A stretch of DNA of 39,043 bases, taken from assembly GCA_046485285.1 (NCBI GenBank), contig JAWOHE010000095.1, positions 1-39,043 on the forward strand, given 5' to 3'. Shown piece by piece: positions 1,386 to 33,237 of this stretch. The translations under genes and the position numbers were made by a program. The first letter of the stretch is position 1, and every line of letters begins with the position of its first letter. Source of the DNA: a bacterium. GTDB taxonomy: Bacteria; Hydrothermota; Tepidihabitantia; Tepidihabitantales; Tepidihabitantaceae. A model generated the notes under the pieces. That model ran no database searches, was not told where the DNA came from, and worked only from the letters and a program-made list of their open reading frames with translations.

Positions 1386-1394
1386 TTCATCCTC

Positions 1395-2762: not shown

Positions 2763-2771
2763 CTCATCCTC

Positions 2772-4595: not shown

Positions 4596-4604
4596 CTCAA
4601 CCTC

Positions 4605-6023: not shown

Positions 6024-6031
6024 GGCCCCTC

Positions 6032-7423: not shown

Positions 7424-7431
7424 TGTCCCTC

Positions 7432-9843: not shown

Positions 9844-10004
9844 CTCAACCTCCTTCCGGCCGACGGTGAATAGTCCGGCGGCCGGCACCGTCTGCGGGAA
9901 CCGCCCGCGCTCAATCGCGGGGTTCCTGCTGTTACAGCTTGTCTGCTCGAGAGGGACTCACCCTGCAGGCTGCGCCCGGCCGGCCCCTTGCCGGCCGAAC
10001 AAGC

Positions 10005-19135: not shown

Positions 19136-19165
19136 GGCCCGCCTGCGTGCGACGCGCGGACAGGC
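19136..19165 (+). repeat. 27-bp element family A, copy 1 (intergenic)
   Basis: ggc-ccgcctgcgtgcgacgcgcggaca-ggc. Confidence 0.85.
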
Positions 19166-19193
19166 TTGACCCCCGCCTGCCCGCGGCTATCCT
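19166..19193 (+). promoter_or_regulatory. Putative promoter for riboswitch-btuB
   Basis: TTGACC-16-TATCCT just upstream of the riboswitch. Confidence 0.55.
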
Positions 19194-19218
19194 TCTCGCA
19201 CCAAGGCGGCGGAAGACC

Positions 19219-19392
19219 GGATGACCGGTTGCCCGGCCCGATGCCGGGCACAGGGAAAGCCGTGGAAATCGGCTGCGGTCCCGCCCACTGTGAGCGGCCG
19301 CGTCGGCGCTGACGCGGCTCTGCCAGCCACTGGCCCCGGCCGGGAAGGCGGCAGACCCGGCATTGCCGGGCCGCGAGCCAGGAGACCTGTCC
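19219..19392 (+). ncRNA. Cobalamin (B12) riboswitch
   Basis: Conserved blocks AGGGAA, CCCGCCCACTGT, GCCACTG...GGGAAGG and B12 box GAGCCAGGAGACCTG, upstream of a TonB-dependent receptor; ends approximate. Confidence 0.92.
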
Positions 19393-19432
19393 GCCGCCAG
19401 GATGTCTCTACCTGCGTGGAAAGGAGCAGAGC

Positions 19433-21655
19433 ATGGCTGGCAAAGCTCGAACACTACTCACGGTCTTCGTCCTGTGCGCCACTGCCGTTGCGTTCCCGGT
19501 CGAATCGGGGACGGCCGGCACTGCGCCGGTTATCTTCATCGGCCGGGTCTTCGACGCCCGCTCCCGCCGGCCGGTCGCCGCGGCCGACGTGGAAGTCCCG
19601 GGTGTCGGCCTGTTTGCGACCGACGAGGAAGGGCTGTTCCGCTTCGAGACCGACGCCGGCGTCCTGACAGTCCGCGTCTCCCGCGTCGGCTACCGGCTGC
19701 GCACCTGGGCGAACGTCACCCCGGGCCCGGTGCGCGAATTCCCGATGATGCCCGAGCTCATCACGCTCGACGACGTCACGGTCACCGCCGGGCGGATGCC
19801 GCTGCCGATCGCGGCGTCCGGTCCGGTCACCATCATCGAGCTCGACGGCCGGCAGACCGCCGGGACGACCGACCCGGCCGAGGCCCTGCGCCGCGCGCCG
19901 GGTGTCGTCGGCAACGACTACGTCAACTACAGCTCGCTCTCGCTGCGCGGCACCGGCATCGAACACACCCTGCTCGCACTCGACGGCATCCGGCTCAACT
20001 CCTCGCAGAACGGCACCTTCGACCTGACAACCCTGCCGGTCGGGGTCGCCCGCCGGGCCGAAATCGCCCGCGGCGGCGGCTCCGCGCTCTACGGTTCGAG
20101 CCCGGTCGGCGGGACGGTCAACCTCATCACCGCCGAGCCGGAGCGTCTCGCCGCAAGCCTGCGCACCGGGGTCGGCGCGTTCGGCCGCCGCTACCTCGCG
20201 GCGACGCACGAGAACCGCCGCGCACCGCTCGGCTACCTGGTCGGCGTCGCGGCCGACGCCGCCGACAACGACTTCACCTGGCACGACGACTCCGGCCGCG
20301 CCCGCGAGATGGCAAACGCCGACCGCTCGTCGCTTGGTGTGTTCGGCAAGGGTTCATGGCGCGAGGCCGCCCACAGGTTCAACCTGTTCGGGCTCTGGTC
20401 TTCGACCGAGCGCGGCGTGCCGGGCCCGCGCGACTGGCCGTCGAGCTCCGCCCGACGCGACGACCGGCAGGGACTAGCCAGCCTCCGGCACACCTTCGAG
20501 CCGGACGAGCGGCTGCTGCTCGACAGCCGGGTGAGCGCGGGGCGCTCCTGGCAGCATTACCGCGACCCGGCGGCCTTCGTGCCGGCAAGCGACACCCACG
20601 CTCTCGCCACTGCGGGCGGCAAGGTTGACGCGATATGGACTCCGAAACACTGGCTGACGCTCGCGGCCGCGGTCGAGCTTGACCGGGACCAACTGGTCAG
20701 CTCCGCGGTAGGCGATGCCTCCCGGTCCGATTTCGCCGGCGTCGGCCAGGCCCGCATTGCCTGGCAGGGCCTGGCGGTCCAGCCCTCGCTGCGGGTCGAG
20801 CGACTGCGCCGGGACCGGCTCCCGGGCCGGAGCCCGACGACACCGCCCCGGTCCGACAGCGCCTCGCACCGCGCGACCACCGACGTCACCAGCCCCCGGG
20901 CGACGGTGACCTGGCACGGTTCCCTGCCCGCGCGCGGCGCGCAGGCGGGCCTGCCGGTCGCGGCCTGGGCCTCCTGCGGCCGCTCCTTTCGCGCCCCGAC
21001 CTTCAACGAGCTGTTCTGGCCAGAGGACGCCTGGACGCGGGGCAACCCGGCGCTCGAACCCGAATGGGCCACCGGCTACGAACTCGGGCTCAGGTCGGCC
21101 GGCGACATCTCTGCCCGGTCCCGGGCGACTTACCGCGCCAGCCTCGGCTGGTACCACAACTCGCTCACCAACCTCATCCAGTGGCGGCCCGACGACTCCC
21201 TTCGCTGGCGGCCGGTCAATGTCGCCGGCGCGGACATCTCCGGGCTCGAGGCCGAACTCGCGCTCGACCTCGGCGGCGTCGGGTTCAGCGGCGACGCGGG
21301 CTGGTGCCGTGCCCGGTCCGGCGGCCGGCGCCTGCTCTACCGGCCCGAGTTCAACGCCAGGGCCGAGGCGTGGGCCTCGGCGGAGTGGCAGCGGCTCGAC
21401 GCCCGGCTGACGCTCGCCGCCGACCTGTCGGGCGACCGGCTGACCGACCCCGCGCTCCCGGACACGACGCCGCAGGTGATGCCCGGCTACGGGACGCTCG
21501 ACGCCGGGGTCGCGCTCGGCTGGCAACCCGGCCCGGCGCGGTATGCGCTCTCGGCCGGCGTCCGCAACCTGGCCGACGCACGGTACGAAACCGTCCGGCA
21601 CTACCCGGTGCCGGGCCGGTCCTGGTACGCCGAGCTGGGTTTCGAGTTCCGCTGA
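19433..21655 (+). CDS. btuB: TonB-dependent receptor, probable vitamin B12 transporter
   Basis: Plug motifs (LRG...LDG.RL...EIARGGGSALYGS..GG.VNLIT), FRAPTFNEL, GNPALEPE, NL.D..YE, terminal PGR...F; riboswitch context. Confidence 0.85.
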   Translation: MAGKARTLLTVFVLCATAVAFPVESGTAGTAPVIFIGRVFDARSRRPVAAADVEVPGVGLFATDEEGLFRFETDAGVLTVRVSRVGYRLRTWANVTPGPVREFPMMPELITLDDVTVTAGRMPLPIAASGPVTIIELDGRQTAGTTDPAEALRRAPGVVGNDYVNYSSLSLRGTGIEHTLLALDGIRLNSSQNGTFDLTTLPVGVARRAEIARGGGSALYGSSPVGGTVNLITAEPERLAASLRTGVGAFGRRYLAATHENRRAPLGYLVGVAADAADNDFTWHDDSGRAREMANADRSSLGVFGKGSWREAAHRFNLFGLWSSTERGVPGPRDWPSSSARRDDRQGLASLRHTFEPDERLLLDSRVSAGRSWQHYRDPAAFVPASDTHALATAGGKVDAIWTPKHWLTLAAAVELDRDQLVSSAVGDASRSDFAGVGQARIAWQGLAVQPSLRVERLRRDRLPGRSPTTPPRSDSASHRATTDVTSPRATVTWHGSLPARGAQAGLPVAAWASCGRSFRAPTFNELFWPEDAWTRGNPALEPEWATGYELGLRSAGDISARSRATYRASLGWYHNSLTNLIQWRPDDSLRWRPVNVAGADISGLEAELALDLGGVGFSGDAGWCRARSGGRRLLYRPEFNARAEAWASAEWQRLDARLTLAADLSGDRLTDPALPDTTPQVMPGYGTLDAGVALGWQPGPARYALSAGVRNLADARYETVRHYPVPGRSWYAELGFEFR
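20923..20955 (-). repeat. 27-bp element family A, copy 2 (in frame in btuB)
   Basis: cctgcc repeated 27 bp apart (20923, 20950); adds LPARGAQAG. Confidence 0.8.
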
Positions 21656-21663
21656 CGCCGGCG

Positions 21664-22980
21664 TCAGCGGCCGGAAGAATCCGGCGGCGCGGCCCCGGGA
21701 GCCCGCGCCCGCTCAACCTCGGCCCGGCAGGCGTCGCGGACCGCGTTGAACTCTGCCCGGAAGCGGTCCGGCACCGGCTCGGCCCTCGGCGGAATCAGCT
21801 TCGCGGGGTTGACCGGCTTGCCGCCCTGGCGGGTCTCGAAGTGCAGGTGCGGGCCGGTCGCGTCGCCGGTCATCCCGACGTAGCCGATGGTCTGGCCCTG
21901 GCGAGCGCGCGCGCCGGTTCTCACCCCGGGCCCGAAACCGGACAGGTGGCCGTAGCGCGAGGACAGCCCGCCCGCGTGCCGGATCTCGACCAGCCGGCCG
22001 TAACCGCCGCGCCAGCCGGCGAAGGCTATCGAGCCGTCGGCGATCGCGCTGACCGGGGTGCCGGAAGGCGCCCCGTAATCGACGCCGTGGTGCTGGCGAT
22101 AGACCCGGTGAATCGGGTGGAACCTCATCCCGAAGTGCGACGTCACCTTGCGGAACTCGAGCGGCGAGCGCAGGATGGTCTTGCGGAGCGACTGGCCCTT
22201 CTCGTTGTAGTAGTCCCAGTGTCCCCGCGCATCCCTGAAGTAGAAGCCCCAGTAGTCGCGGTTCCGGCCGCGGTAGCGGGCCGCGTGGACCCGGCCGTAC
22301 TTGTAGAAGGCCGAGTCAACGAGGAACTTGTCGACGACGATCTCGAAAGTGTCGCCGTCGTTGGACTCGGTGAAGAAGTCGATGTCGTAGCGCAGGATGT
22401 CGGTGAACGCCATCACCAGCCAGGGGCCCTCGCCGAGGCCGACCAGCGAATGCCAGATTGACGTCCTGACCGTGCCGGCGACAACCGCGCGGACGGTGTC
22501 GACCGGCGCATCGAACCGCGCCGCGGCCGCGCCCGTCGAGTCAAACCTGACCCGGTAGCTGGTCGCGGCGTCCTTGTGCCAGTTCAGCGCCTCGAGTTCG
22601 AGCCCGCGGCAGAACAGCGTCACCGAATCCCCGGGCCGGAGGGTCCGGAAGTTGAAGTCGGTCAGCCGCAGGGCCGCCGCGGCCTGCTCGACCCGCGCCG
22701 GCGCCACTCCCAGCCGCCGGAGCATCGTGTGGAACAGCTCGCGCTCGCGCATCGCGTCGCCGCCGACGTAGAGCGACTCCGGGCAGGGCAGGTCCGGCCC
22801 GCAGGGAACCCGGTTGCGCCTGGGCGCGAGCCGCAGGACCATCAGGACCGCGCCGGCCGCGAGCAGCAGCGCAAGCGCGATGATTGCCGGTGACGGCAGG
22901 CCCCGCCGACCGGCTGTCTGCCCGCGCGTTGCGCGCAGGCGGGTCGGCCTCGACCCCGGTGCGGGTCCGGCCGCCCGCAA
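21664..22980 (-). CDS. M23 family metallopeptidase (MepM/Csd3-like)
   Basis: HHGVDY (HxxxD), YGHL, STGPH-like ATGPHLHF (HxH); N-terminal TM; TTG start with GGAG is tentative. Confidence 0.9.
   Translation of the reverse strand: MRAAGPAPGSRPTRLRATRGQTAGRRGLPSPAIIALALLLAAGAVLMVLRLAPRRNRVPCGPDLPCPESLYVGGDAMRERELFHTMLRRLGVAPARVEQAAAALRLTDFNFRTLRPGDSVTLFCRGLELEALNWHKDAATSYRVRFDSTGAAAARFDAPVDTVRAVVAGTVRTSIWHSLVGLGEGPWLVMAFTDILRYDIDFFTESNDGDTFEIVVDKFLVDSAFYKYGRVHAARYRGRNRDYWGFYFRDARGHWDYYNEKGQSLRKTILRSPLEFRKVTSHFGMRFHPIHRVYRQHHGVDYGAPSGTPVSAIADGSIAFAGWRGGYGRLVEIRHAGGLSSRYGHLSGFGPGVRTGARARQGQTIGYVGMTGDATGPHLHFETRQGGKPVNPAKLIPPRAEPVPDRFRAEFNAVRDACRAEVERARAPGAAPPDSSGR
22916..22945 (-). repeat. 27-bp element family A, copy 3 (N-terminus of M23 gene)
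   Basis: Minus strand gac-ccgcctgcgcgcaacgcgcgggca-gac. Confidence 0.85.
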
Positions 22981-23076
22981 CTAACGCTCCGCGCCCGGGC
23001 CCGGCCTGCCGGCCGTCATCCCGCTGGCCGTCGGGCCGGGCCGGCGAGCGGCGACTATTCTCCACATACTGGCGGA

Positions 23077-23104
23077 ATTCTAGCCGCGGCCACGGCCGGT
23101 TCAA
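23077..23104 (-). promoter_or_regulatory. Putative promoter for M23 gene 21664..22980
   Basis: TTGAAC-16-TAGAAT. Confidence 0.5.
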
Positions 23105-24591
23105 CCGCGGCCACCCGGCGCACCGCGCCGGGAGTCCGTTCCGGAATCGGGAAGGAACACCTCATCTGCCCCGCGCCGTGGGCGCGGCTTCCCGGCGGCC
23201 GCAGCGGCCACCCGGCTGATTATCGCCCGGCAGGAATCCCGGAAGCGCTCGAATTCCGGCCACTCGGCTGGACCGACCTCCTCGACCCTGCTCGGCAGGG
23301 CCTCGAGCGGGTCGACGTGACGGCCGTCCCGGAGCGTGCCGAAGTCGAGGTGCGCGCCTGACGAGAGCCCGGTCGAGCCGACGTACCCGACGAGGTCTCC
23401 CCGGCCCACCGCCGCGCCGGGCTTGATGCCCTCGGCGTATCGGCTCAGGTGCGAGTACCGGGTGACGAGCCCGGCCGTGGCGTGCTCGACCTCGACCGTC
23501 CGACCGTACCCGCTCCGCCAGCCCGCCCGGCAGACCGCGCCGGCCTCGACCGCTCGCACCGGCGTCCCATGGGATGCCTCGTAGTCAAGGCCGTTGTGCT
23601 GGATCCGGCGGCGCACGACCGGGTGCAGCCTCGGCCCGAAGTCGGAGGTCCGCCGCGCGCCGACAACCGGCGGGTAGCTCAGCACCGGGCCGAGCGAGCG
23701 GCCGTCCGCGTCGCAGTAGAAGGTCAACCCGCCCGGCGCTCCGCGCCGGGAGTCCGTCCCGGAATCCGGAAGGAACCCCTCATCTGCCCCGCGCCGCAGG
23801 CGTGGCTTCCCGGCGGCCGGGCCGCCGGGGGAATGGTGAAACCCCCAGGCCTCGACCACGCCGACGTAGCCCAGGGCGTGAATCCGGCCGAAGCCGTAAA
23901 AGCTGTCGCCGACCGCCAGCCGCTCGACCACGACCGCGAATGAGTCGCCGGGATGCATATCGCGCAGGCGCGGCAGGCGGTGCCGGAGGATGCTCGTGTA
24001 CGACGCGGCGAGCCGGTCGTCGGCGCCCGCGTCGAGCAGCGACTGCCAGAGCGAAACGCGGACGATCCCGACCAGCGCGACCGCGGTGGTCTCGACCGGC
24101 GCCATCACCCGGCACGCCTCGGCGGTGTCCGGCCCGAAGCGGACCTCGAAGCTGGTTGCGAGGTCGACGTCATAGCGCAGGCGGGCAGGCCGCGAGCCCG
24201 CAAGAGGCGAAGCCTGTGCTCCTGCATACTCGACCGTGACCGAATCCCCCGGCAACATCCGCTGGAAGTCGAAGTCGACCCGGCCCAGCGCCGCCACCGC
24301 CGCCCGCGCGTCCTCGGGCGATAGGTCAAGCGCGGCGAGCACCTGCGCCAGGTTCTCGCCCGGCCCGACCACCCGGCCGGAGAAGCTGCCCGCAGGCAGG
24401 ACCGGCACGCTCTCCACCGGCGCCGCCGCCTCGACCGCGCTCGCGGCCGGCGGCCGGGAGCGGGCGCAGACGCCGACGACGGCCCCGGCGCCGGCCGCGG
24501 CAAGCAGGATGACCGCCGTCGGCCTCGAAGCACGAGAGCGACAGCCCGGCACGCTACCCGAGGCTCCCGATGCCGACCGCCATCGCGTCAA
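23101..24591 (-). CDS. Second M23 family peptidase (paralog) carrying three repeat-element insertions
   Basis: HNGLDY, YSHL, SSGAHLDF; aligns with neighbour once inserts are removed; start codon uncertain. Confidence 0.85.
   Translation of the reverse strand: MTRWRSASGASGSVPGCRSRASRPTAVILLAAAGAGAVVGVCARSRPPAASAVEAAAPVESVPVLPAGSFSGRVVGPGENLAQVLAALDLSPEDARAAVAALGRVDFDFQRMLPGDSVTVEYAGAQASPLAGSRPARLRYDVDLATSFEVRFGPDTAEACRVMAPVETTAVALVGIVRVSLWQSLLDAGADDRLAASYTSILRHRLPRLRDMHPGDSFAVVVERLAVGDSFYGFGRIHALGYVGVVEAWGFHHSPGGPAAGKPRLRRGADEGFLPDSGTDSRRGAPGGLTFYCDADGRSLGPVLSYPPVVGARRTSDFGPRLHPVVRRRIQHNGLDYEASHGTPVRAVEAGAVCRAGWRSGYGRTVEVEHATAGLVTRYSHLSRYAEGIKPGAAVGRGDLVGYVGSTGLSSGAHLDFGTLRDGRHVDPLEALPSRVEEVGPAEWPEFERFRDSCRAIISRVAAAAAGKPRPRRGADEVFLPDSGTDSRRGAPGGRG
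23107..23216 (-). mobile_element. Multi-hairpin element family C, copy 1, forming the M23 C-terminus
   Basis: Near-identical to 23729-23829; flanked by 13-bp direct repeat gcggccacccggc (23107-23119, 23204-23216). Confidence 0.75.
23729..23829 (-). mobile_element. Multi-hairpin element family C, copy 2, in-frame 93-bp insertion in M23 gene
   Basis: ccgcc repeated 93 bp apart; 31 aa absent from the paralog. Confidence 0.8.
24200..24226 (-). repeat. ~24-bp element family B, copy 1 (in frame in M23 gene)
   Basis: gca repeated 24 bp apart around aggcgaagcctgtgctcct; adds AGAQASPL. Confidence 0.75.
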
Positions 24592-24600
24592 CCGCTCTTC

Positions 24601-24629
24601 GAAAGGCGGAGCCCGTGCTCCGGCAAACC
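24601..24629 (-). repeat. Family B, copy 2 (intergenic)
   Basis: gaaaggcggagcccgtgctccggcaaacc, 3 substitutions versus 26741-26769. Confidence 0.65.
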
Positions 24630-24661
24630 CTCGCCGCGCCGGTCACGTCCCCAGGCAAGGC

Positions 24662-26809
24662 TCACTCGACGACGGACAGCCGGCGCGTGACCAAACGGCT
24701 GCCCGAGCGCAGATGCAGGAAGTACAGCCCGGGCGCCAGGCGCGCGCCCCGACAGCCGACCAGGTCGAAGCTCACCGGCTGGCCGGCCCCGGGCGCCACG
24801 TCCAGCCTCCGCGCGAGGTGCGAGCGGCCCCCGACGTCGAGCACCCTGGCCTCGAGCGGCGGCGAGCCCGCCGGGAGGTCAACCGTCAGCTTCGCCCGTC
24901 CCTCGAACACGCTCACCGCCGAGGCGGAGAGCTCCGGCGCCGAGCGCGGCCCCGGGTCCAGGCTGCGCGCGTCGAGGAAATCCGCGCTGACCGCCTGCCG
25001 CCGCCAGGGGCGGTGGCCCGGCCCGGGCAGACCGGTATCCGGGTCAACCGCCACCTCGAACAGCCGGTCGTCCGCCCACGAACGGTAGAGCACCGAGTGG
25101 ATGCCCGGCTGCCTCACCCGCAGGCCGGCCCAGAACCCGGCGCTCTCTCCCGGCCGCAGGCGCCAGCCGCGCTCCCAGCCGCCCAGCCACTCGAGCAGGT
25201 GGTATCCGCCGAGCTTCGTCCGCCGGGCCGCGCCCGGGCCCGGTCGCTGGGGCTGAACCGCCAGCACGTCCCAGACCGCGGTGTCAAGCGCGACCACCAC
25301 CCCGAACCGGTACGGGCTCACGCTCCCGCGGTTCTCGACCTTGACGTCGAGCCGCACCGCGCCGGTCCCGCCCTGCCGGTCGAGCACGACCGCGACGCTT
25401 GAGACGAGCTCGACCGGCCCGAACTCGTAGCCCGGGTAGTTGACATAGACCGGGTTGGTAATGACCCCGAAGCGGCCGTTCGCCCGCACGAGCTCCGCCC
25501 GCACGAAGCCGGAGTCCCAGGAACAGACGAGGCTGCTCCACTCGTGGCTGAAATCGCCCGGCGCGGAAAATCGCCACCGGAACAACTCGCCGTGCCGGGT
25601 CAGCACCCGCAACTCCTCATTGGGGCTGACGCTCTCGGCCTCGACCCGGAACCGGACCGGCCGCGCGCCCGCGCTGACCCGGACAAAATCGCCCATCGCG
25701 AGGTTCCAGTACCCCTTGCCGCTCGTGTCGGCGTAGAGGTACACCCGGCTTCCATCCGGCCGGTCACAGGCCATCACGCGGCCGAGCTTGAACGCTCGCA
25801 ACAGCGTATCCGGGTGGGTCGACGATGCCCGGACCCGCGAGCAGGGCACGAGCGGCCGCTCGTGCTGGTTGTCGCCGTGGAAGTCGGAACTCCCGATGCC
25901 GGCGATGGCGTGCCCGGCCACGAGCAGGTCGTGCCACCATTCCACCGCCAGTTCCTCGTTCTCGGCGAACCCGGTCCGGCCGTTCATCAGCTCGATCCCG
26001 TCAATCCCCGGGTCGAGCAGCGGGTAGCGGTGCCACCGCCAGTCCCACGCGCGGGGATGATTGATGTGGACGACGGCGCCGCGGTAGCTTGCGTCGTCAA
26101 TCATCTCCGGGACCGACCGGACCGCGACCGCGGCCGGCCCGGCGAGCCCGAGCAGGTTGGCGTGCCCGGAGTCGCTCGTCCACTCGGTCCCGCGGATCGG
26201 CTCGAGCAGGCCAACCGCGTGGAACGCGGTGTCGTAGCACTGGTCGAGCGTGTTGTGGTCGGTAATGCCGAGGAAGCGCCCGTCCGCCGCGGCCGCCCGC
26301 GCCAGCAGTTCATGGACGGTCAGGGCGCCATCCGAGTACACGGTGTGCGTGTGGCTCGAGCCGAGGAACCACGAGTTCGGACTCGCCCAGAGCCTTGCGT
26401 CAAAGCTGTCGGCAGGGGCATCGGTGAAGAGCGTCAGCCGATTGCCGTTCGGCCGGAGCAGGCCGACCCGGTCCGAGAAATCCAGCGCGCGAACCAGCGT
26501 CCGCGCGACCGGCCCGGGCTCGACGGTGGCGACGAGCGAGTCATTGAGCCGGACCTCGAACGACTCGACGCCGGCGAGCGCGAGGTACAGCCCGGCCGGC
26601 CGGGCGTCGACGAGCGAGAACTCGTGCGACCACGCCCCGCCCGAGAGCCTCGCCGGCCCGTCGAAGACGACCTCGTCGCCGGCCATCGGGGCGAGGCCGA
26701 CCGCGGTCCCGGCCGCGACCGCCAGGGCCAGGACGAAACGGAAAGGCGAAGCCTGTGCTCCTGCAAACCTCCAAAACCTGCTCACGGCTCGGCGGCGCGC
26801 CACGGGCAC
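24662..26809 (-). CDS. PHP-domain (CehA/McbA-like) metallohydrolase with CTD-like end
   Basis: HTHTVYSDG, ITDHN, GTEWT..GHAN, INHP, GSSDFH; ends PGLYFLHL..RRLSVVE. Confidence 0.85.
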   Translation of the reverse strand: MPVARRRAVSRFWRFAGAQASPFRFVLALAVAAGTAVGLAPMAGDEVVFDGPARLSGGAWSHEFSLVDARPAGLYLALAGVESFEVRLNDSLVATVEPGPVARTLVRALDFSDRVGLLRPNGNRLTLFTDAPADSFDARLWASPNSWFLGSSHTHTVYSDGALTVHELLARAAAADGRFLGITDHNTLDQCYDTAFHAVGLLEPIRGTEWTSDSGHANLLGLAGPAAVAVRSVPEMIDDASYRGAVVHINHPRAWDWRWHRYPLLDPGIDGIELMNGRTGFAENEELAVEWWHDLLVAGHAIAGIGSSDFHGDNQHERPLVPCSRVRASSTHPDTLLRAFKLGRVMACDRPDGSRVYLYADTSGKGYWNLAMGDFVRVSAGARPVRFRVEAESVSPNEELRVLTRHGELFRWRFSAPGDFSHEWSSLVCSWDSGFVRAELVRANGRFGVITNPVYVNYPGYEFGPVELVSSVAVVLDRQGGTGAVRLDVKVENRGSVSPYRFGVVVALDTAVWDVLAVQPQRPGPGAARRTKLGGYHLLEWLGGWERGWRLRPGESAGFWAGLRVRQPGIHSVLYRSWADDRLFEVAVDPDTGLPGPGHRPWRRQAVSADFLDARSLDPGPRSAPELSASAVSVFEGRAKLTVDLPAGSPPLEARVLDVGGRSHLARRLDVAPGAGQPVSFDLVGCRGARLAPGLYFLHLRSGSRLVTRRLSVVE
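26741..26769 (-). repeat. Family B, copy 3 (in predicted N-terminus of the PHP gene)
   Basis: gaaaggcgaagcctgtgctcctgcaaacc; 22 bp identical to copy 1. Confidence 0.75.
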
Positions 26810-28489
26810 TCAGGACCCACTGCGGCCGGTCAGCACCGCCCGGAGCGTCGTCGCCCGCCGGCCGTCGACCAGCCGGAACAGGTAACTGCCCGCGCTCGCC
26901 CGCCGGCCGGACTCATCGAGCCCGTCCCAGCCGGCCTCGGTCCTGCCCGCGACATCCAGGCTCCGCACCAGCCGCCCGGTCGCGCCGTAGACCCGGAGCC
27001 GGCTCCCGTGCCGGGCCGGGGCCGTCAGCTTCAGCCGGAAGCCGCCCGTGCCGATGCTCGGCCGGACCGAGGCCAGCCCGGCCGCCCGGGGCCCGCCTGC
27101 GCGCAACGCGCGGGCAGGCCGCGCCGGGATCTCAGCGAGCCCGGTCGGGACCGTCGCGCCCGCCAGCTTGGCGACCGTCGCCACCGCCGCTCTCGTCGCG
27201 TCGGTCGCCAGCGGCAGGTTGTTCGTTCCGCAGTTCACGAAGTAGAGCGGCCCGACGGTATCCCCGGTGGTGTGATAGGCCGGCGTGAAGTCACGCTCGA
27301 TGCCCATCAGGGCCGGGTAGCCCCTTGCCAGGAACGGGTAGTGGTCGGAGTTCGGCGAGACGTAGCTCAGCACGCGCCGCCTCGTCTTCAGGTCCGTGAA
27401 CGTATCGGCCTGGGCGATGTAGAAATCGACCAGCCAGCCGCAGGGCGGGTTGGCGGTCTTGCCGATGACATCGAGCGAGTCGCGGTTCTCCCGGCCGTAT
27501 GAGATCATGTCGAAGTTGAGCACGGCCTTGATCGAGTCGCCGCGGCGGTAGCAGAACTCCGCGAAGCTGTCCGAACCATAGAGCCCCTGCTCCTCGCCGG
27601 CGAATGCCATGAAGTACACGGTATTCTCGAACTCGACGTCCTGGAAGACGCGGGCCGCCTCGAGGACCGCGGTCGTGCCCGAGGCGTTGTCGTCCGAGCC
27701 GGGCGCGTGGGTCAGCCGGTTCTGCTCCTCGGAAGTCGCGTCGGCGTGGCCGCAGACGCCGTAGATGCGCTGGGGGCTCGAGGTCCCGTAGCGGACGCCG
27801 ATGACGTTCGGCGCAAAGCCGTTCCGGAACGGGAACTCGAACACGGTGTCACAGCCGTACGACTCCAGCCGGCCGCGAATCCACGCCATCGCCGCACGGC
27901 AGGAGTCGGTCGTCGAGTAGCGGGTCCGGAAGCCCTGCATTCGCCGGATCGAGGCCTCGACCGAGTCCTGCGAGACCAGCCCGACCAGGCCCCATACCAG
28001 GCTGTCGCTCACCGCGGGCAGGGCCCTTCCCTCATTCTGCATTCTGCATTCTGCAATCTGCAATCTGCAATCTGACTTCCTCGGCCGAAGGTGTATCCGC
28101 GCCAGCTCGACTCCCAGCCCGTCCAGCCCCGCGGCCCGGGCGGAGTCGGTCAGGAGCACTGCGCCCCGGGCGTCGAGGTACAGCACTTCACCGCGGCCCG
28201 CCAGCGACGGCAGCGGCCCGCGCAGGGTCGTCGCGTACATGTAGTGCTTGCCGTCCGGGTCCCGGTCGAGCCGCCTGCACTCGAAGCTCCGGGCCAGCGC
28301 GGCGAGCTCGGCCTCGTCGGCCGTCACCAGGCACCCCGCCTCGAGCTCGAACACGACGGTCACGTCGGCCGCGTCGACCGCGGCCACGTCTCTGCCTGGC
28401 CCGTACTCCACGTACGCCAGCCATTCCGGCCCGGCCGCGAATGCAAGCGCGACCAGGACTGAGGACAGGAGGGCCGGTCTCTTCATCAT
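26810..28489 (-). CDS. M28 family aminopeptidase with signal peptide and FlgD-type CTD
   Basis: GHAD, PGSDDNASG, GEEQGLYGS, NFDMI, SDHYPF, YHT..D; start set at ATG 28489 after GGAG. Confidence 0.9.
   Translation of the reverse strand: MMKRPALLSSVLVALAFAAGPEWLAYVEYGPGRDVAAVDAADVTVVFELEAGCLVTADEAELAALARSFECRRLDRDPDGKHYMYATTLRGPLPSLAGRGEVLYLDARGAVLLTDSARAAGLDGLGVELARIHLRPRKSDCRLQIAECRMQNEGRALPAVSDSLVWGLVGLVSQDSVEASIRRMQGFRTRYSTTDSCRAAMAWIRGRLESYGCDTVFEFPFRNGFAPNVIGVRYGTSSPQRIYGVCGHADATSEEQNRLTHAPGSDDNASGTTAVLEAARVFQDVEFENTVYFMAFAGEEQGLYGSDSFAEFCYRRGDSIKAVLNFDMISYGRENRDSLDVIGKTANPPCGWLVDFYIAQADTFTDLKTRRRVLSYVSPNSDHYPFLARGYPALMGIERDFTPAYHTTGDTVGPLYFVNCGTNNLPLATDATRAAVATVAKLAGATVPTGLAEIPARPARALRAGGPRAAGLASVRPSIGTGGFRLKLTAPARHGSRLRVYGATGRLVRSLDVAGRTEAGWDGLDESGRRASAGSYLFRLVDGRRATTLRAVLTGRSGS
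27090..27120 (+). repeat. 27-bp element family A, copy 4 (in frame in M28 pre-CTD linker)
   Basis: ggcc repeated 27 bp apart around ccgcctgcgcgcaacgcgcgggca. Confidence 0.85.
28033..28074. repeat. Heptamer tandem repeat (CATTCTG)3(CAATCTG)3, in frame in the M28 gene
   Basis: Six 7-bp units = 42 bp = 14 codons (DCRLQIAECRMQNE). Confidence 0.9.
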
Positions 28490-28545
28490 CACCACGCTCC
28501 TGCGGTTTGTCTGACCTCGGGCGCGACCCATTCGCGCCACCTGCA

Positions 28546-28573
28546 ATTCTAGAACCCGACGCGACCTAGTCAA
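28546..28573 (-). promoter_or_regulatory. Putative promoter for M28-PHP genes
   Basis: TTGACT-16-TAGAAT. Confidence 0.55.
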
Positions 28574-28577
28574 AGCC

Positions 28578-29429
28578 TCACACCAGCAGCCACAGGCTCA
28601 GCGCCATCAGCGCCATCCCGGAGACGATGCCGAGCACGCTCAGGTGCTCGCGGCCGTAGGCGTAGGAACCGGGAATGAGCTCGTCGAAGGAAATGAAGAC
28701 CATCAGGCCGGCGACGGTCGCCAGCACGTAGGCGAGCAGGGTCTCGGTCAGGAACGGCAGCAACACCAGCGCAGCCAGCCCGGCGCCGACCAGCTCCGCC
28801 GCCCCGGACACGAACGACCAGAGGAACGCCTTGCGCCGCGACCCGGTCGCGCAGAACACCGGGGCCGCCACCGCGATGCCCTCCGGGATGTTGTGCAGGG
28901 CGATCGCGAGGGCAATCGCCAGCCCGAGCCGCGGGTCCTTGACCGCCGCGGCGAAGGTCGCCATCCCCTCGGGCAGGTTGTGCAGCCCGATGCCGATGGC
29001 AATCAGCACTCCCGCGCGCATCAACCGCTGGGGCGGGATGGCACCGGCCCCGCCGCCCCGGTGCCGGCGGCCGTGCCCGTGACCCCGTCCCCCGGGGCCT
29101 GCCGGGTTCGGGCCGGGCTCGGCGCAGTGGTCGACCCCGCCGATGTGCTCGCTGATGAACAGGTGCGGAACGACGAGGTCAACGACGAACATCAACCCGA
29201 GCCCGCCGAAGAAGGCCAGGACCGCCGGCGCGAAACCAAGCAGGCCGACCGACTCCCGCAGCAGCTCGGCGAAACTCACGAACATCATCACCCCGGCCGC
29301 GAACCCGAGCATGAACGCCATCACCTTCGGGCCGGGCCGGCGGAAGAGCATCGCGATGAAGCTGCCGACCGTGGTCGCCAGCGCCGCCCCGGCCGAGATC
29401 GCCAGCGCCAGCAGGACGTCACCGTGCAT
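28578..29429 (-). CDS. zupT: ZIP family divalent metal transporter
   Basis: LGFAAGVM, HNLPEG and HNIPEG, AGLMVFISFDELIP; His/Gly-rich loop. Confidence 0.9.
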   Translation of the reverse strand: MHGDVLLALAISAGAALATTVGSFIAMLFRRPGPKVMAFMLGFAAGVMMFVSFAELLRESVGLLGFAPAVLAFFGGLGLMFVVDLVVPHLFISEHIGGVDHCAEPGPNPAGPGGRGHGHGRRHRGGGAGAIPPQRLMRAGVLIAIGIGLHNLPEGMATFAAAVKDPRLGLAIALAIALHNIPEGIAVAAPVFCATGSRRKAFLWSFVSGAAELVGAGLAALVLLPFLTETLLAYVLATVAGLMVFISFDELIPGSYAYGREHLSVLGIVSGMALMALSLWLLV

Positions 29430-29904
29430 CGCGCCCGCCCTTCCCGGCCCGCGCCCGCAGCTCTGCCCCGCGCTCGCCCCGGACGAACTCGACCAGCCGC
29501 TCGAGCCGCCGGGTCGTTTCCGCGCTCAGGACGTGCTCGATCGCGCAGGCGTCGGTCGCGGCCGTCGCCTTGCCGACGCCGAGCACTTCGCCAAGAAATT
29601 CCTCCAGCACCCGGTGCCGCCGGTAGACCCGTTCCGCGGCCCGCGCCCCGCGCGCGGTCAGCTCGACCGCCCCATAGCGCTCGTGCCGCACCAGCCCGCG
29701 CCGCTCGAGCCCGACGAGCGCGCTGACGACCGACGGCTTGCTGACCCCCAGCCGAGCGGCGAGACCGGTGACCCGGACGCTCCGCCCGCTTCGACCGGCA
29801 AGGTGGATCGCCTCGAGGTAGTCCTCGGCGCTCGCGCCCAGCCCGCCGGCGCGCAACGCGCGGGCAGGCCCGCCGGCGCGGTCGACAGCCTTTTTGTTAG
29901 CCAT
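29419..29904 (-). CDS. DtxR/MntR family metal-dependent regulator
   Basis: SAEDYLEAI, HTH LGVSKPSV, LT..G, RHRVLEEFL, DACAIEH. Confidence 0.92.
   Translation of the reverse strand: MANKKAVDRAGGPARALRAGGLGASAEDYLEAIHLAGRSGRSVRVTGLAARLGVSKPSVVSALVGLERRGLVRHERYGAVELTARGARAAERVYRRHRVLEEFLGEVLGVGKATAATDACAIEHVLSAETTRRLERLVEFVRGERGAELRARAGKGGRDAR
29841..29880 (+). repeat. 27-bp element family A, copy 5 (in frame in regulator N-terminus)
   Basis: 13-bp direct repeat gcccgccggcgcg at 29841 and 29868, 27 bp apart. Confidence 0.85.
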
Positions 29905-29911
29905 GCCTAAC
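29896..29911. promoter_or_regulatory. DtxR-family operator overlapping the regulator's start codon
   Basis: GTTAGGCATGGCTAAC (minus strand), 16-bp palindrome with one mismatched pair, TTAGG..CTAA-type core. Confidence 0.7.
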
Positions 29912-29938
29912 TCTAGCGCCGGCCGGCCCGGCTGTCAA
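29910..29938 (-). promoter_or_regulatory. Promoter of regulator-zupT operon (leaderless)
   Basis: TTGACA-17-TAGAGT-5 nt-ATG. Confidence 0.7.
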
Positions 29939-29947
29939 GCCCGTCGA

Positions 29948-29975
29948 TTGACTTCCCGGGGGACGGTCCTAGAAT
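29948..29975 (+). promoter_or_regulatory. Promoter of kinase-fba operon
   Basis: TTGACT-16-TAGAAT-9 nt-ATG. Confidence 0.6.
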
Positions 29976-29984
29976 GGCCGGGCG

Positions 29985-30911
29985 ATGGTCTACACCGTCA
30001 CCCTCAATCCCGCGCTCGACCGGACGTTGTTCGTCGACAGCCTGGCCCTGGGCGGGTCGAACCGGATCCGCCGCGAGGCCCGCTACGCCGGCGGCAAGGG
30101 CATCGACGTCTCGCGCGCGCTGGTCGAGATGGGCGTGCCGACCGTCGCCCTCGGCCTCGTCGGCGGGTTCGACGGCAAGGAGTTCGAGGGCCGGCTCCTT
30201 AACGAGGGCGTGGCCTGCGACTTCACGCGCATCGCCGGCGAAATCCGCACCAACGTCGTCATTCACGACGAGTCCGGCGCCGAGACCGCCCTGCTCGCCC
30301 GGGGCCCGGAGGTCCAGCCGGTCGAGTTGATGAGCTTCATCGACCACCTCGAGGGCATCGCCGGCGGCAGCTTCCTGGTCGTGTCCGGGTCCCTTCCCCC
30401 CGGGCTGACCCCGGCGGTCTACCGTCGCATCATCTCGGTCGGCAACGACCGGGGCTTCACGACCGTCCTCGACGCCTCCGGCGAGGCGCTGCGCTCCGGC
30501 ATCCGAGCCCGGCCCCGCATCATCAAGCCCAACCGCGACGAGCTTGCCGAGCTCGCGGGGACCGCGCTCGCCGACATCCCGGCGATGGTCCGCTTCTGCC
30601 GGACCCTCGAGAAGGAGGTCGCCACCGTCCTCGTCTCGCTCGGCGCGGACGGCATCCTGCTCGTCGAGTCGAAGCGTGCCCTGCACGCCCGGCCGCCGAA
30701 GGTCGAGGTCGCGAGCACGGTCGGCGCCGGTGACTGCGCGGTCGCCGGCTTCGTCGCCGGCCTGCTGATGAAGGAGAGCCCGGCCGACCGCCTGCGCCGG
30801 GCGGTCGCGGCCGGGACCGCCGCGACGATGACCCCGGGCACCGGCATCTGCTGCCGCCGGGACATCGCCCGGCTGCTGCCCGGGATAACGGTCACCGAGG
30901 TCGCGGCGTGA
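29985..30911 (+). CDS. pfkB: 1-phosphofructokinase family hexose kinase (PfkB/FruK)
   Basis: YTVTLNPALD, GGKGIDVSR, SGSLPPG, IKPN..EL, TVGAGD. Confidence 0.92.
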   Translation: MVYTVTLNPALDRTLFVDSLALGGSNRIRREARYAGGKGIDVSRALVEMGVPTVALGLVGGFDGKEFEGRLLNEGVACDFTRIAGEIRTNVVIHDESGAETALLARGPEVQPVELMSFIDHLEGIAGGSFLVVSGSLPPGLTPAVYRRIISVGNDRGFTTVLDASGEALRSGIRARPRIIKPNRDELAELAGTALADIPAMVRFCRTLEKEVATVLVSLGADGILLVESKRALHARPPKVEVASTVGAGDCAVAGFVAGLLMKESPADRLRRAVAAGTAATMTPGTGICCRRDIARLLPGITVTEVAA

Positions 30912-31828
30912 AGCTGGTCCCGGGCCGCGAGCTGCTCGACGCCGCGGCGGCCGGCGGTCACGCGCTCGGCGCGTTCAACTTCTCGAACCTCGAATTCCTC
31001 CAGGCCATCGTCGACGCGGCCGGCACGACCCGCACCCCGGTCTTCCTCGCGACCAGCGAGGGCGCGGTGAAGTACGCCGGCCTCGACAACCTCGTCGCGC
31101 TGGCGCGGGCCGCGGCCGCGCGCTGCCCGGTCCCGCTCTGCCTCCACCTCGACCACGGCCGCGACCTCGAGCTCATCCGGGCCTGCATCGAGGCCGGCTG
31201 GACCTCGGTGATGATTGACGCCTCGGACCTGCCGTTCGAGGAAAACGTCGCGAAGACCGCCGCGGTCACGAACCTCGCCCGACCCCGGGGCGTCTCGGTC
31301 GAGGCCGAGCTCGGCCGGCTCGTCGGCATCGAGGACTCGGTCCGGGTCGAGGAGCGCGACGCGGTGCTGGTCGACCCGGACCAGGCCGCGGATTTCGTTC
31401 GCCGCACCGGCATCGATTCGCTCGCGCCCGCGGTCGGCACCGCCCACGGCGCGTTCAAGTTCAAGGGCGAACCGAGGCTCGACATCGCCCGGCTCGACCG
31501 CGTCCGCGCCGCGACCGGCGGCCTCCCGCTCGTCCTTCACGGCGCCTCGAACGTGCCGCCCGCCGTGCTCGAGGCCTGCCGCGCGGCCGGGGTCGAGGTC
31601 ACCGGCGCGAAGGGCGTACCCGAAGACCAGCTCCGCGCCGCCATCCGCGCCGGCGTCCGGAAAGTCAACGTCGATACCGACCTGAGGCTCGCGTTCCTCG
31701 CCGCGGTGCGCTCGAGCATCCTCGCCCGACCGGGCGAGTTCGACCCACGCCGCTACCTTGGCCCGGGCCGGGACGCGGTTCGCGCGCTCGTCATCGAACG
31801 GGTCCGCCTGCTCCGGGAGCCGGCGTGA
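30908..31828 (+). CDS. fba: Class II fructose-1,6-bisphosphate aldolase
   Basis: GAFN, LHLDHG, SVMIDAS, VEAELG, GTAHGAFK, LVLHGAS, KVNVDTD. Confidence 0.95.
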   Translation: MKLVPGRELLDAAAAGGHALGAFNFSNLEFLQAIVDAAGTTRTPVFLATSEGAVKYAGLDNLVALARAAAARCPVPLCLHLDHGRDLELIRACIEAGWTSVMIDASDLPFEENVAKTAAVTNLARPRGVSVEAELGRLVGIEDSVRVEERDAVLVDPDQAADFVRRTGIDSLAPAVGTAHGAFKFKGEPRLDIARLDRVRAATGGLPLVLHGASNVPPAVLEACRAAGVEVTGAKGVPEDQLRAAIRAGVRKVNVDTDLRLAFLAAVRSSILARPGEFDPRRYLGPGRDAVRALVIERVRLLREPA

Positions 31829-32637
31829 GCGCCCGGCGGCCTGGCCGCCGGGAAACCGCGCCTTCGGCGCGGGGGGGAGAAGGACGCCATCAGGATTCCG
31901 GAACGGACTCCCGGCGCGTGGCGCCGGGCGGAACTCTGCTCGCCGGGGTGCGGCGCCGCATCGCCCGCTCGGACGGGGTGATGGCAATCACCGGCCCCGG
32001 CATCCTGACCTTCCGCGGCGACGAGGATCTCCGACGCGCGGCCGACCCGCCGGAGCTTGCCACGCCCGAGGCGTTCCGGGCCGACCCGGTCAGGGTCTGG
32101 CAGTGGTACGACGAGCGGCGCCGGGAAATCGCCGGCGCCGAGCCCGGCCCGGCCCACCTCGCGCTGGCCCGGCTCGAGGCCGCGGGCAAGGACGTCTTCA
32201 TCGTCACCCGGAACGTCGACGACTTCCACGAGCGCGCCGGCTCGAGACAGGTCGTCCACGTCCACGGCTCGATCTGGCGGGTCCGCTGCGAGCGCGACGG
32301 CTTCACCGACGAGAATCGCCAGGTCCCGCTCCTCGAACTGCCGCCGACCTGCCCGTGCGGCAACGACCTCAGGCCCGACGTGGTCTGGTACGGCGAGCGG
32401 CTCCCGCCCGGCCCGCTCGAGGCGGTTCGCGCCCACCTGCTCGAGGCCCGCTCCAACGTCCTGCTCATCGTCGGCGCCGAGGCGTCCTTCGGCCACGTTG
32501 TCCAGTGGGCCCACGAGGCCCACGAGCAGGGCGCGCTTGTCGTCACCGTGAACCCGCGCCCGACCGGGCTCGAGTCCATCGCCGACTTCCGGCTCGAAGG
32601 CCGGCCCGACGACATCCTGCCCGGACTGGTTCCCTGA
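31825..32637 (+). CDS. Sir2/CobB-like NAD-dependent deacylase homologue with degenerate motifs
   Basis: LATPEAF..DP..VW.WY..RR, VTRNVDDFHERAGS, HVHGS, LRPDVVWYGE; start uncertain. Confidence 0.75.
   Translation: MSARRPGRRETAPSARGGEGRHQDSGTDSRRVAPGGTLLAGVRRRIARSDGVMAITGPGILTFRGDEDLRRAADPPELATPEAFRADPVRVWQWYDERRREIAGAEPGPAHLALARLEAAGKDVFIVTRNVDDFHERAGSRQVVHVHGSIWRVRCERDGFTDENRQVPLLELPPTCPCGNDLRPDVVWYGERLPPGPLEAVRAHLLEARSNVLLIVGAEASFGHVVQWAHEAHEQGALVVTVNPRPTGLESIADFRLEGRPDDILPGLVP
31829..31931 (+). mobile_element. Multi-hairpin element family C, copy 3, at the fba/sirtuin junction
   Basis: Shares ggccgccgggaa.ccgcgcc-NNN-ggcgcgg and gattccggaacggactcccggcgc-NNN-gcgccggg with the 23-kb copies, in opposite orientation. 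Confidence 0.75.
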
Positions 32638-32640
32638 CAT

Positions 32641-33237
32641 ATGGACGAGGGCCGCTTCCTCGAGCTCTGCCGCGCCCGGCGCTCGGTCCGCCGGTTCAGC
32701 GAAGGGCCGGTCGAGCGCGAGAAGCTCGCGTATTGCCTCGAGGCCGCCCGGCTCGCGCCGTCGGCCGACAACGACCAGCCTTGGCGCTTCATCGTCTTCG
32801 ACGACCCGGCGGCCAAGGCCGCGCTCGCCGACGCCGCCTTCTCCGGCATCTACCGTACCTCCCGGCGAATGGCCCACGCGCCCGTGCTCGTCGTGCTTGC
32901 CGTCCGCGAGAACCTGCTCATCAACCGCGTCGGCGGCGGCGTCCAGGGCACCCCGTTCCAGCTCATCGACGCCGCGATTGCCGGCGAGCATTTCGTCCTC
33001 GCCGCGGCCGAGCAGGGCCTCGGCACCTGCTGGGTCGGCTGGTACGACGCCCGCGCGCTCCGCCGCCACCTCGGACTCGGCCGGGGCCTGCGCCCGGTCT
33101 GCCTCATCGCCGTCGGCTACCCGGCCGCCGGCTGGAAGCCGGGCCCGGCCCGACGCCGGCCGCTCGGCGACATCGCCGACTGGAACGCCCCGCCGCGCGG
33201 CCCGGCCCGCCTGCGTGCGACGCGCGGACAGGCTTGA
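32641..33237 (+). CDS. Nitroreductase family protein
   Basis: RRSVRRF, LAPSA.N.QPW.F, LAAAEQGLGTCWVG, IAVGYP. Confidence 0.92.
   Translation: MDEGRFLELCRARRSVRRFSEGPVEREKLAYCLEAARLAPSADNDQPWRFIVFDDPAAKAALADAAFSGIYRTSRRMAHAPVLVVLAVRENLLINRVGGGVQGTPFQLIDAAIAGEHFVLAAAEQGLGTCWVGWYDARALRRHLGLGRGLRPVCLIAVGYPAAGWKPGPARRRPLGDIADWNAPPRGPARLRATRGQA
33204..33233 (+). repeat. 27-bp element family A, copy 6 (last codons of nitroreductase)
   Basis: Identical to copy 1; 33199-33238 equals 19131-19170 over 40 bp. Confidence 0.88.

Follow-up and report, generated by a model that had tools for sequence, protein, structure and literature searches.

Six copies of a 27-nt hairpin unit in the window

The 39,043-nt contig JAWOHE010000095.1 (assembly GCA_046485285.1, a bacterium of the family Tepidihabitantaceae, Hydrothermota), analysed here over its full length and referred to as the window, carries six copies of a hairpin-forming unit of 27 nt that is very probably a mobile selfish repeat. 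The window is contig C53 of a metagenome-assembled genome (MAG), designated G000, which comprises 2.34 Mb in 102 contigs with 69% GC and is 88% complete. Matches to a 24-nt pattern were found at 19139, 20925 (minus strand), 22919 (minus strand), 27093, 29843 and 33207 with 0–2 mismatches, compared with an expectation of 0.02 and a maximum of one in 100 dinucleotide-preserving shuffles of the window. A preliminary description of this DNA had reported six copies, five of them inside genes, and had stated that a motif no commoner than in a shuffle would refute it; all six copies were placed, five in coding sequence, and the finding stands against the shuffled expectation. Beyond the motif and a few adjoining bases, the six copies do not align.

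The unit has the sequence CCCGCCTGCGYGC-NN-CGCGCGGGCAGG, composed of C, the 24-nt core and GG, and its boundaries were set from the tandem arrays of this genome and from 78 unique copies in other organisms. It folds over its whole length into one imperfect hairpin (11 pairs around a 3-nt loop, with a C.A mismatch and a T.G wobble), with a fold energy of -19.2 kcal/mol as RNA and -11.8 kcal/mol as DNA. Compared with shuffles the fold stands out only modestly (z-score -2.4 in the best case, -0.9 in the variant at 19138), as any DNA this GC-rich folds well. The 27-bp hairpin first described is a repeated 27-nt unit, and its reported freedom from stop codons was confirmed in six frames of each of the six window units. 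The unit ends, CCCG... and ...CAGG, lack a GTAG or CGTC tag. No Rfam family matched the hairpins, the sole match in the window being a cobalamin riboswitch, and spacers of the CRISPR (clusters of short palindromic repeats at regular intervals) type are absent, since the units of this genome stand singly or abut directly. The units, their host genes and the riboswitch are located as follows.

19138..19164, plus strand: 27-nt unit, intergenic, identical to the unit at 33206 (private variant)
19209..19408, plus strand: cobalamin riboswitch (Rfam RF00174, scored at 66.5 bits, gathering score 31.5), context outside the element
19433..21655, plus strand: TonB-dependent receptor gene, host (Pfam Plug, TonB_dep_Rec_b-barrel)
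20923..20949, minus strand: 27-nt unit in the receptor gene and opposite to it, LPARGAQAG, residues 497-506 of 740
21664..22980, minus strand: M23 peptidase gene, host (Pfam Peptidase_M23, Csd3_N2)
22917..22943, minus strand: 27-nt unit in the N-terminal tail of the M23 peptidase, residues 13-22 of 438, before the membrane helix
26810..28573, minus strand: M28 peptidase gene, host (Pfam), its FlgD-Ig domain at the C-terminus
27092..27118, plus strand: 27-nt consensus unit in the M28 linker, PARALRAGG, residues 486-494 of 587
29419..29904, minus strand: DtxR-family repressor gene, host (Pfam Fe_dep_repress, Fe_dep_repr_C)
29842..29880, plus strand: 27-nt unit with a 12-nt arm repeat in the DtxR-family gene, PARALRAGG, residues 13-21 of 161
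29842..29868, plus strand: the 27-nt unit proper in the DtxR-family gene, with a private T7>G change
32641..33237, plus strand: nitroreductase gene, host (Pfam Nitroreductase)
33206..33232, plus strand: 27-nt unit at the nitroreductase C-terminus, last nine codons, residues 189-198 of 198

The unit is read within PTRLRATRGQT in the M23 peptidase and as PARLRATRGQA in the nitroreductase, where it directly precedes the ancestral stop codon, which overlaps a TTGACA hexamer. In the M28 protein it is placed between the peptidase domain and the FlgD-Ig domain. The long open reading frame (ORF) that spans the unit at 19138 is not an actual gene; this unit stops 1 nt before a promoter-like TTGACC-16-TATCCT (19166-19193). 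The promoter-like site and the cobalamin riboswitch ahead of the TonB-dependent receptor fit a BtuB-like role of the latter.

The first 10 kb of the window (1-10000) has 59–66% GC, compared with 70–75% in the rest, and carries minus-strand genes for two proteins of the beta-lactamase fold (PF00144), an S41 peptidase and two beta-propeller proteins. This segment may be a foreign island.

Copies across the genome

A search of G000 with the degenerate pattern gave 35 matches at up to three mismatches (20 exact, 11 with one, two with two and two with three), of which one three-mismatch match, on C99, resembles noise. With the plain consensus, 35 matches were obtained at up to four mismatches and none in the reversed control, as compared to 9 versus 5 at five mismatches and 53 versus 34 at six. 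Given this abrupt gap between true matches and noise, the family is sharply bounded and young. The genome-wide core search proposed in the preliminary description separates the family cleanly from its control. Two extra copies carry deletions in the loop (C98:23436, 26 nt; C49:10613, 25 nt), and head-to-tail arrays with an exact 27-nt period occur on C8 (two units), C94 (two), C93 (three) and C98 (three).

About half of the unit copies in G000 are a single insertion that was amplified with a truncated helix-turn-helix (HTH) gene repeat. Some 15–18 copies have long flanks in common and lie at the same spot of a 400–700-bp repeat, often at contig ends; for this reason they are counted as one insertion hitch-hiking on a larger repeat. 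The host repeat corresponds to the 5' portion of an Xre-type HTH gene (HTH_31), with the unit between ...DYLRA and CGASF..., and unit-free paralogues exist on C19 (an intact 293-aa protein) and on C4. Repeat copies carry one unit (12 copies), two (C65, C94) or three (C93), and others hold 26-nt unit variants (C20, C35) or deletions (C7, C18). The repeat family counts 25 matches in G000 against 4–7 in four congeners, and several of its copies are truncated or stop-bearing.

Several side observations concern this repeat. Copies were seen on contigs C1, C4, C5, C7, C18–C20, C22, C35, C37, C39, C58, C65, C86, C87, C90, C91, C93–C96 and C101 (for example, L040:3376-3657). Most are truncated or contain stops, many lie at contig ends and only those on C19 and C4 look intact; the family itself acts as a mobile or recombining repeat would. 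Upstream of the HTH repeats stand 12-nt periodic G-rich arrays (consensus approximately GTAGGGGGAACG, up to 18–20 copies), located at L040:3795-4013 and 4244-4490 on C101 and on many other contigs. Related GTAAC/G-run palindromes come after a RAYT-like gene on C44 (RAYT, REP-associated tyrosine transposase; REP, repetitive extragenic palindromic sequence), and may be that gene's own REP-like family.

With the HTH repeat set aside, the following independent loci were counted.

C8: 1060, 4280, 5819, 6587 and 8959+8986
C53 (the window): six loci
C98: 21802-21879 (three units), 23436 and 35774
C49: 10613

Of these 15 loci, 14 fall on three contigs (C8, C53 and C98) that together make up 112,258 of 2,339,643 bases (4.8%). 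At least nine of the 15 lie in coding sequence; beyond the five of the window, one TPR protein holds two, an S55-like protein holds a tandem pair of units and a LEA_2-domain protein a tandem array of three. As for the other loci, C8:4280 is intergenic, C8:1060 and C98:35774 are uncertain, and C98:23436 and C49:10613 stand outside the coding count. A minisatellite or variable-number tandem repeat would grow only by slippage at a single locus; the arrays agree with this, but single units occur here at 15 non-homologous loci and in other phyla.

Three translations of the unit had been noticed at first, which is correct for the window; across G000 five reading frames are used (ARLRATRGQ, PACAQRAGR, ACPRVARRRA, PARALRAGG and LPARCAQAG), and a sixth (PPARNARAG) was found in other organisms. 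The use of five frames, together with the intergenic position of some copies, indicates that it is the DNA sequence and not the peptide that is conserved. Surviving copies sit in termini, linkers and variable loops, in keeping with the early remark that peptides are added to termini, linkers and turns.

Two further hairpins, at C18:3170-3199 and C42:13735-13766, are related to the unit and have arms CCTGTCTGCGTGC/GCACAGGCAGG. The same arm type also encloses the 27-nt unit in many Patescibacteria copies. The C18 and C42 hairpins may be older relatives of the unit.

Empty sites in relatives

Four genomes of the same genus (G001–G004), with 72–81% DNA identity over these regions, were used for comparison, and no insertion common to G000 and any of these congeners was found. 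In the TonB-dependent receptor gene, G004 lacks exactly 27 nt in an alignment otherwise 80.8% identical over 250 nt, and at the protein level a 9-aa gap is present in both G004 and G002, with G001 also shorter here. In the LEA_2 gene, exactly 81 nt (three units) are missing in both G004 and G002. All five homologues of the LEA_2 protein in a large protein database have 159–164 aa compared with 186 aa here, and all five show one clean 27-residue gap. An AlphaFold2 model of this protein is too poor to be informative, with a mean pLDDT (predicted local distance difference test) of 57 and values below 50 in the insert.

The nitroreductase genes of G003 and G004 stop where the unit starts in G000, with ...PPG(S)/(AGRAG)-stop and the same TTGACA. 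In the btuB spacer of G004, orthologous to that with the unit at 19138, the promoter is kept and the unit is absent. G004 has a net 27 nt fewer in the M28 gene (gaps of 10+12+5), and the net shortfall of the M28 protein is 9 aa in G004, 10 in G003 and 11 in G001. For the S55-like gene, the coordinates of high-scoring segment pairs imply 54 nt fewer in G004, in a low-complexity stretch that aligns poorly when compared directly. The M23 protein of G004 is 7 aa shorter in a region that aligns poorly; its similarity to the G000 protein begins at residue 5, upstream of the unit. The N-termini of the DtxR-family orthologues, in which the start MANKK corresponds to MPNKR in G002, are too divergent for an empty site to be defined. 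As a separate observation, the G002 orthologue (L011, G002:C167) bears a different N-terminal extension of about 20 extra Arg/Ala/Gly-rich residues at the place of the unit, and this site seems prone to insertions.

The pattern occurs 0–3 times per genome in 40 relatives, compared with 33 copies in G000, and phylum-wide the unit is found in 4 of 272 genomes, all of one family. The units were originally proposed to be insertions, a claim that would fail if orthologues kept the nine residues; relatives lack the units, and orthologues and homologues are shorter by exactly 9, 18 or 27 residues.

Junction anatomy and proposed local copying

No target-site duplication of constant length is present among 78 unique foreign contexts and 14 local ones. 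In the foreign contexts bias is limited to the two adjoining bases, with G ahead of the unit in 52 of 78 and C or T behind it in 71 of 78. In G000, CAGG or CCGG frequently closes the left flank and CC frequently opens the right one, and a junction of this kind resembles that between tandem units. The direct repeats of 3–13 nt around the copies arise because the flank resembles the unit end. The direct repeats spaced 27 bp apart in the preliminary description are real; they reflect microhomology between target and unit rather than a trace left by a transposase. A fixed 3-bp target duplication was considered as well and rejected, as the flanks of foreign and local copies do not match at a constant length.

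Private variants of the unit are each restricted to one contig. The units at 19138 and 33206 are identical, with three private changes, have 9+27+9 nt in common and both lie directly 5' of a TTGAC hexamer. The units at C8:5819 and C8:6587 carry the GCGCGAAAC variant and have 5+27+10 nt in common, in inverted orientation, 770 nt apart in one gene. These two pairs, which have the longest common flanks (the median over all pairs is 5 nt), are also the pairs with a common private variant. In the unit at 29842, the private T>G change is found again in the adjacent 12-nt repeat of its 5' arm. These junction features fit copying from a nearby template with short homology on either side, and agree less well with a fixed-end element that is excised and inserted.

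Occurrence in other organisms

The same core is present in other phyla, in MAGs of Patescibacteria and Latescibacterota, where it is rare and patchy. In contigs representing one genome per species, a looser pattern gave 31 stretches, 16 of which have the true core followed by GG. Flanks of these 16 have 40–66% GC, and the MAG titles name Patescibacteria-group lineages, Latescibacterota, WOR-3 or simply 'bacterium'. The other 15 stretches (GCGCGA-type, from Proteobacteria and other groups of high GC) were rejected as ordinary coding matches on inspection. In metagenome contigs, a stricter 26-nt pattern was found in 102 stretches, and in 80 of these, whose arms are fixed by the search pattern itself, the loop bases are CG in 28, AA in 14, TG in 11, GG in 10 and others in 17. 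Five small genomes hold 1–10 copies each at up to three mismatches, with changes mostly in the loop.

Foreign host proteins with the unit in frame include RpoC, PolA, TrpB, Pth and others, and in 18 of 50 unique loci with flanks below 58% GC an open frame extends for at least 60 codons to either side. Many foreign copies stand at the tip of longer palindromes with arms of the GCCTGYCTGYG type that resemble decayed relatives of the unit. Words of this type number 18 versus 0 in the control in G044, the richest of the other unit-bearing genomes with 10 units, and 14 versus 8 in G000. The polA gene of G044 (C26, L112) carries, around residues 350–395, the unit and neighbouring segments, the latter read as GTQTG and SAQAG; these segments derive from related hairpin arms, and this is one essential gene with several nested or adjacent hairpin insertions.

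The unit was found in none of 400 other genomes sampled from the phylum of G044, and viral contigs gave no match to it. Plasmids and phages gave no BLAST match with an 84-nt array, although the low-complexity filter may hide matches.

Search for a mobilising enzyme

The preliminary description had likened the unit to REP sequences, had suggested looking for a RAYT gene flanked by the motif, and had supposed that the unit is mobilised in trans. G000 has a single Y1_Tnp gene, IS200/RAYT-like (C44:28764-29506; L046:1462-2204). A perfect 74-bp tandem duplication (L046:1791-1938) shifts its frame, and the gene is bounded by unrelated 26-nt inverted repeats and then by GTAAC/G-run repeats, which also precede HTH repeats. 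No core or arm words of the unit were detected near this gene or near six Y1_Tnp loci of other unit-bearing genomes. G044 has no Y1_Tnp for its 10 units and G042 has nine for its single unit, and Y1_Tnp counts do not correlate with units across five other genomes. The analogy with REP and RAYT was thus not upheld.

Neither Resolvase nor IS110 gave a match in G000 or G044, and Y2/IS91 gave none anywhere, control genomes included. G000 contains one DUF559 gene, on a contig without units, and a GIY-YIG match only in a 628-aa ORF. No unit or arm words were present within 1.5 kb at any of 16 fetched DUF559/GIY-YIG loci. Outside these 16, a small GIY-YIG gene of G044 (C82:2374-2580) lies 474 nt from a unit. 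A 168-aa GIY-YIG-like ORF near one HTH repeat is single-copy and falls below threshold (E = 0.086). Arm-like 12-mers number 582 in G000 compared with 211 in the reversed control, and a scan for isolated arms was swamped by the GC-rich background. BLAST of a unit-bearing region against the genome revealed no long repeat ending in unit arms. Among the families searched, no candidate enzyme is common to G000 and G044, the two richest genomes, so that mobilisation in trans is an inference of the preliminary description that found no enzyme to attach to; such absences are weak evidence, since the genomes are incomplete MAGs (88% for G000).

Proposed spread and competing explanations

The unit is very probably a tiny, non-coding and selfish hairpin repeat that is copied into new sites without target-site duplication. 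As it adds nine codons and is free of stops in every frame, copies in permissive parts of proteins (termini, linkers and loops) survive and are translated. In the history that we propose, one copy would have entered the truncated HTH-gene repeat and been amplified along with it; about 15 further independent insertions would have followed later, nearly all on three contigs, and arrays of two to three units may have grown by slippage.

For the individual event, replication or repair would copy an existing hairpin unit. The end of a nascent strand with a few bases homologous to the unit junction (...CAGG|CC...) would switch to a nearby copy, copy the unit and sometimes a few flanking bases too, and then return. 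Such template-switch copying would need no dedicated enzyme encoded by the genome. The same arms in a few scattered lineages of other phyla require occasional horizontal transfer, so that arrival by some vehicle is assumed in addition. The comparisons show the insertions, their exact 27-nt steps, the lack of a target duplication, variants and flanks in common among neighbouring copies and the patchy occurrence across phyla; we infer both the copying mechanism and the route of transfer. Our confidence that the unit is a mobile selfish repeat is high. Template-switch copying is put forward tentatively, with doubt slightly outweighing belief, and if a single compromise rating is given to the whole, that is a selfish hairpin repeat together with this copying mechanism, it is the explanation that we favour by a small measure.

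Several points weigh against this account. Template switching alone leaves unexplained why 24 arm positions are identical across phyla while the loop varies, which looks like protein recognition or very recent transfer. Flank homology to the unit ends amounts to only 1–2 nt in other genomes, so that the long microhomologies may be peculiar to the GC-rich G000, and since arm-like 12-mers are common there, some of the flank resemblance may be due to chance. Contig GC skew and unit orientation show no consistent pattern of strand bias, the numbers being small. The unit sites are known from the MAG assembly alone, and the clustering on three contigs could also be due to recombination with another strain through which the element had spread.

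The most serious competitor, which we consider unlikely though far from negligible, is a dedicated hairpin-specific enzyme (HUH-type, a structure-specific nuclease or a recombinase) that mobilises the unit in trans, possibly from a transient plasmid or other vehicle, with the microhomology reflecting target preference. Such an enzyme would account for arms that stay the same from phylum to phylum, down to the asymmetric C.A mismatch and T.G wobble, around a varying loop, and for the preference for G before the unit (52/78) and C or T after it (71/78); the patchy distribution among lineages would suit it, and the position of many foreign copies at the tips of older related hairpins suggests recognition of structure. 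However, none of the tested families (Y1_Tnp, Resolvase, IS110) is present in both copy-rich genomes, none of the 16 DUF559/GIY-YIG loci has unit or arms nearby, viral contigs, plasmids and phages gave no match, and the varying length of donor flanks in G000 would be unexpected from a cut at fixed ends.

A REP/REPIN-type element (REPIN, REP doublet forming a hairpin) spread by the RAYT of G000, an IS200-like Y1 transposase, is highly improbable and already largely refuted. It would suit a short imperfect palindrome that is dispersed and sometimes clustered, the genome does hold one Y1_Tnp gene on C44, and an HTH repeat starts ~400 nt downstream of that gene, the contig ending just before the would-be unit position. 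Yet the gene is flanked by other inverted repeats and the GTAAC/G-run family instead of the 27-mer and its frame is broken by the 74-bp duplication; the unit lacks the GTAG/CGTC tag, most independent copies are genic, and G044 and G042 combine many units with no Y1_Tnp and many Y1_Tnp with one unit, respectively.

Slightly less probable again is that the unit is a scar left by, or a satellite of, a small cassette with a homing nuclease (GIY-YIG or DUF559). The unit-bearing Patescibacteria genomes hold numerous small GIY-YIG genes, and the one in G044 stands 474 nt from a unit, but core or arm words were absent from all 16 loci within 1.5 kb, G000 has GIY-YIG only in the 628-aa ORF and DUF559 only on a unit-free contig, and the 168-aa GIY-YIG-like ORF is a single-copy, sub-threshold match.

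Two explanations have very little left in their favour. The first denies mobility and sees in the unit either an assembly artefact or a motif selected for its function as peptide, operator or terminator. Two copies do stand directly upstream of hexamers of the -35 type, terminator-like T-runs come after some foreign copies, 27 is one of the k-mer sizes in use among assemblers and the junctions are known from assembly. Against this, all of the six frames and either orientation are used, in coding and in non-coding sites; the insertions fall at non-homologous positions in unrelated proteins; records of many origins, assembled independently, contain the same sequence; and exact 27-nt multiples are missing in relatives and homologues. 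The second, which is equally hard to credit, is a minimal MITE (miniature transposable element with inverted repeats) that consists solely of the terminal inverted repeats of a DDE-type insertion sequence and is moved by that sequence's transposase: the unit does consist of two 12-nt inverted arms around 3 nt and some copies have 3-nt direct repeats, but no target duplication of fixed length was found in 78 foreign contexts or in G000, BLAST of a unit-bearing region against the genome gave no long repeat ending in the arms, the head-to-tail arrays keep an exact 27-nt period, and the smallest MITEs in the review of Delihas (PMC3184786) are about twice as long as the 27-bp unit.

Implications

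If a 27-base hairpin is able to spread within genomes and from one to another while encoding no gene, the minimum size of mobile DNA is lowered. The mechanism would then be one that is absent from transposon catalogues, either structure-directed copying at the fork or a hairpin-specific enzyme. The element is a source of insertions of 9, 18 and 27 residues in enzymes, receptors and regulators, and it also alters gene ends and promoter-proximal DNA. Its units inflate 'hypothetical' N-terminal extensions and break assemblies, and strains of uncultivated lineages could be told apart by having or lacking them. The burst in one genome, together with the exact empty sites of congeners, makes this a testable system.

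A bolder view, possible in our opinion but rather doubtful, would treat the unit as a free-standing 'nano-transposon' that moves between phyla (this lineage, Patescibacteria and Latescibacterota) and colonises coding sequence including that of the essential rpoC, polA and trpB. It would then be the smallest horizontally spreading selfish DNA known, its mechanism being either hairpin recognition outside the known transposase families or the host replication machinery alone, and it would be one of a wider undescribed class of in-frame hairpin elements.

Comparison with known systems

No description of the 27-nt element was found in full-text searches of the literature, which did not extend to Elhai et al. 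2008. The GC-rich palindromic clusters of yeast mitochondria, about 30–40 bp long, are mobile without an enzyme of their own and probably spread via gene conversion within one genome pool. They differ from the unit in being organellar and unrelated in sequence. They are similar to it as small GC-rich mobile palindromes that can occupy AT-rich DNA and a coding gene. PMC8811140 is one of the papers on such clusters.

REP elements and REPINs with their RAYT transposases, in the account of Bertels and Rainey 2011 (PMC3116915; see also Di Nocera et al. 2013, PMC3733652), are like the unit short (20–40 bp), imperfect GC-rich palindromes that are dispersed, clustered and non-autonomous. REP elements are extragenic, carry a GTAG/CGTC tag and flank a RAYT; the unit has none of these three features.

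Rickettsia palindromic elements (RPE) are longer than the unit and confined to Rickettsia, whereas the unit is 27 bp long, also stands in tandem arrays and is spread over several phyla. Their size is about 100–150 bp, and we know of no transposase associated with them. RPE (Ogata et al. 2000) are presented in PMC3184786 as palindromes lying in frame inside protein-coding genes and translated, and on that outline they and the unit are alike in being in-frame palindromic insertions that give rise to extra peptide segments; in-frame palindromic insertions in genes, missing from the orthologues, are what we observed here.

The small dispersed repeats (SDR) of heterocyst-forming cyanobacteria are set apart from the unit in that most of its independent copies lie in frame inside genes and its core crosses phyla. 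SDR are found nested in other repeats, and to our knowledge no transposase is known for them. In the brief descriptions of SDR (Elhai et al. 2008) given in PMC3116915 and PMC2884548, they resemble the unit in length (~20–27 nt), in being both dispersed and tandem and in having no encoded function, and they belong to another phylum and appear to differ in sequence, the unit being a GC-rich hairpin; this comparison is one of descriptions only. The closest described relatives in kind are thus the cyanobacterial SDR, the RPE and the REP elements.

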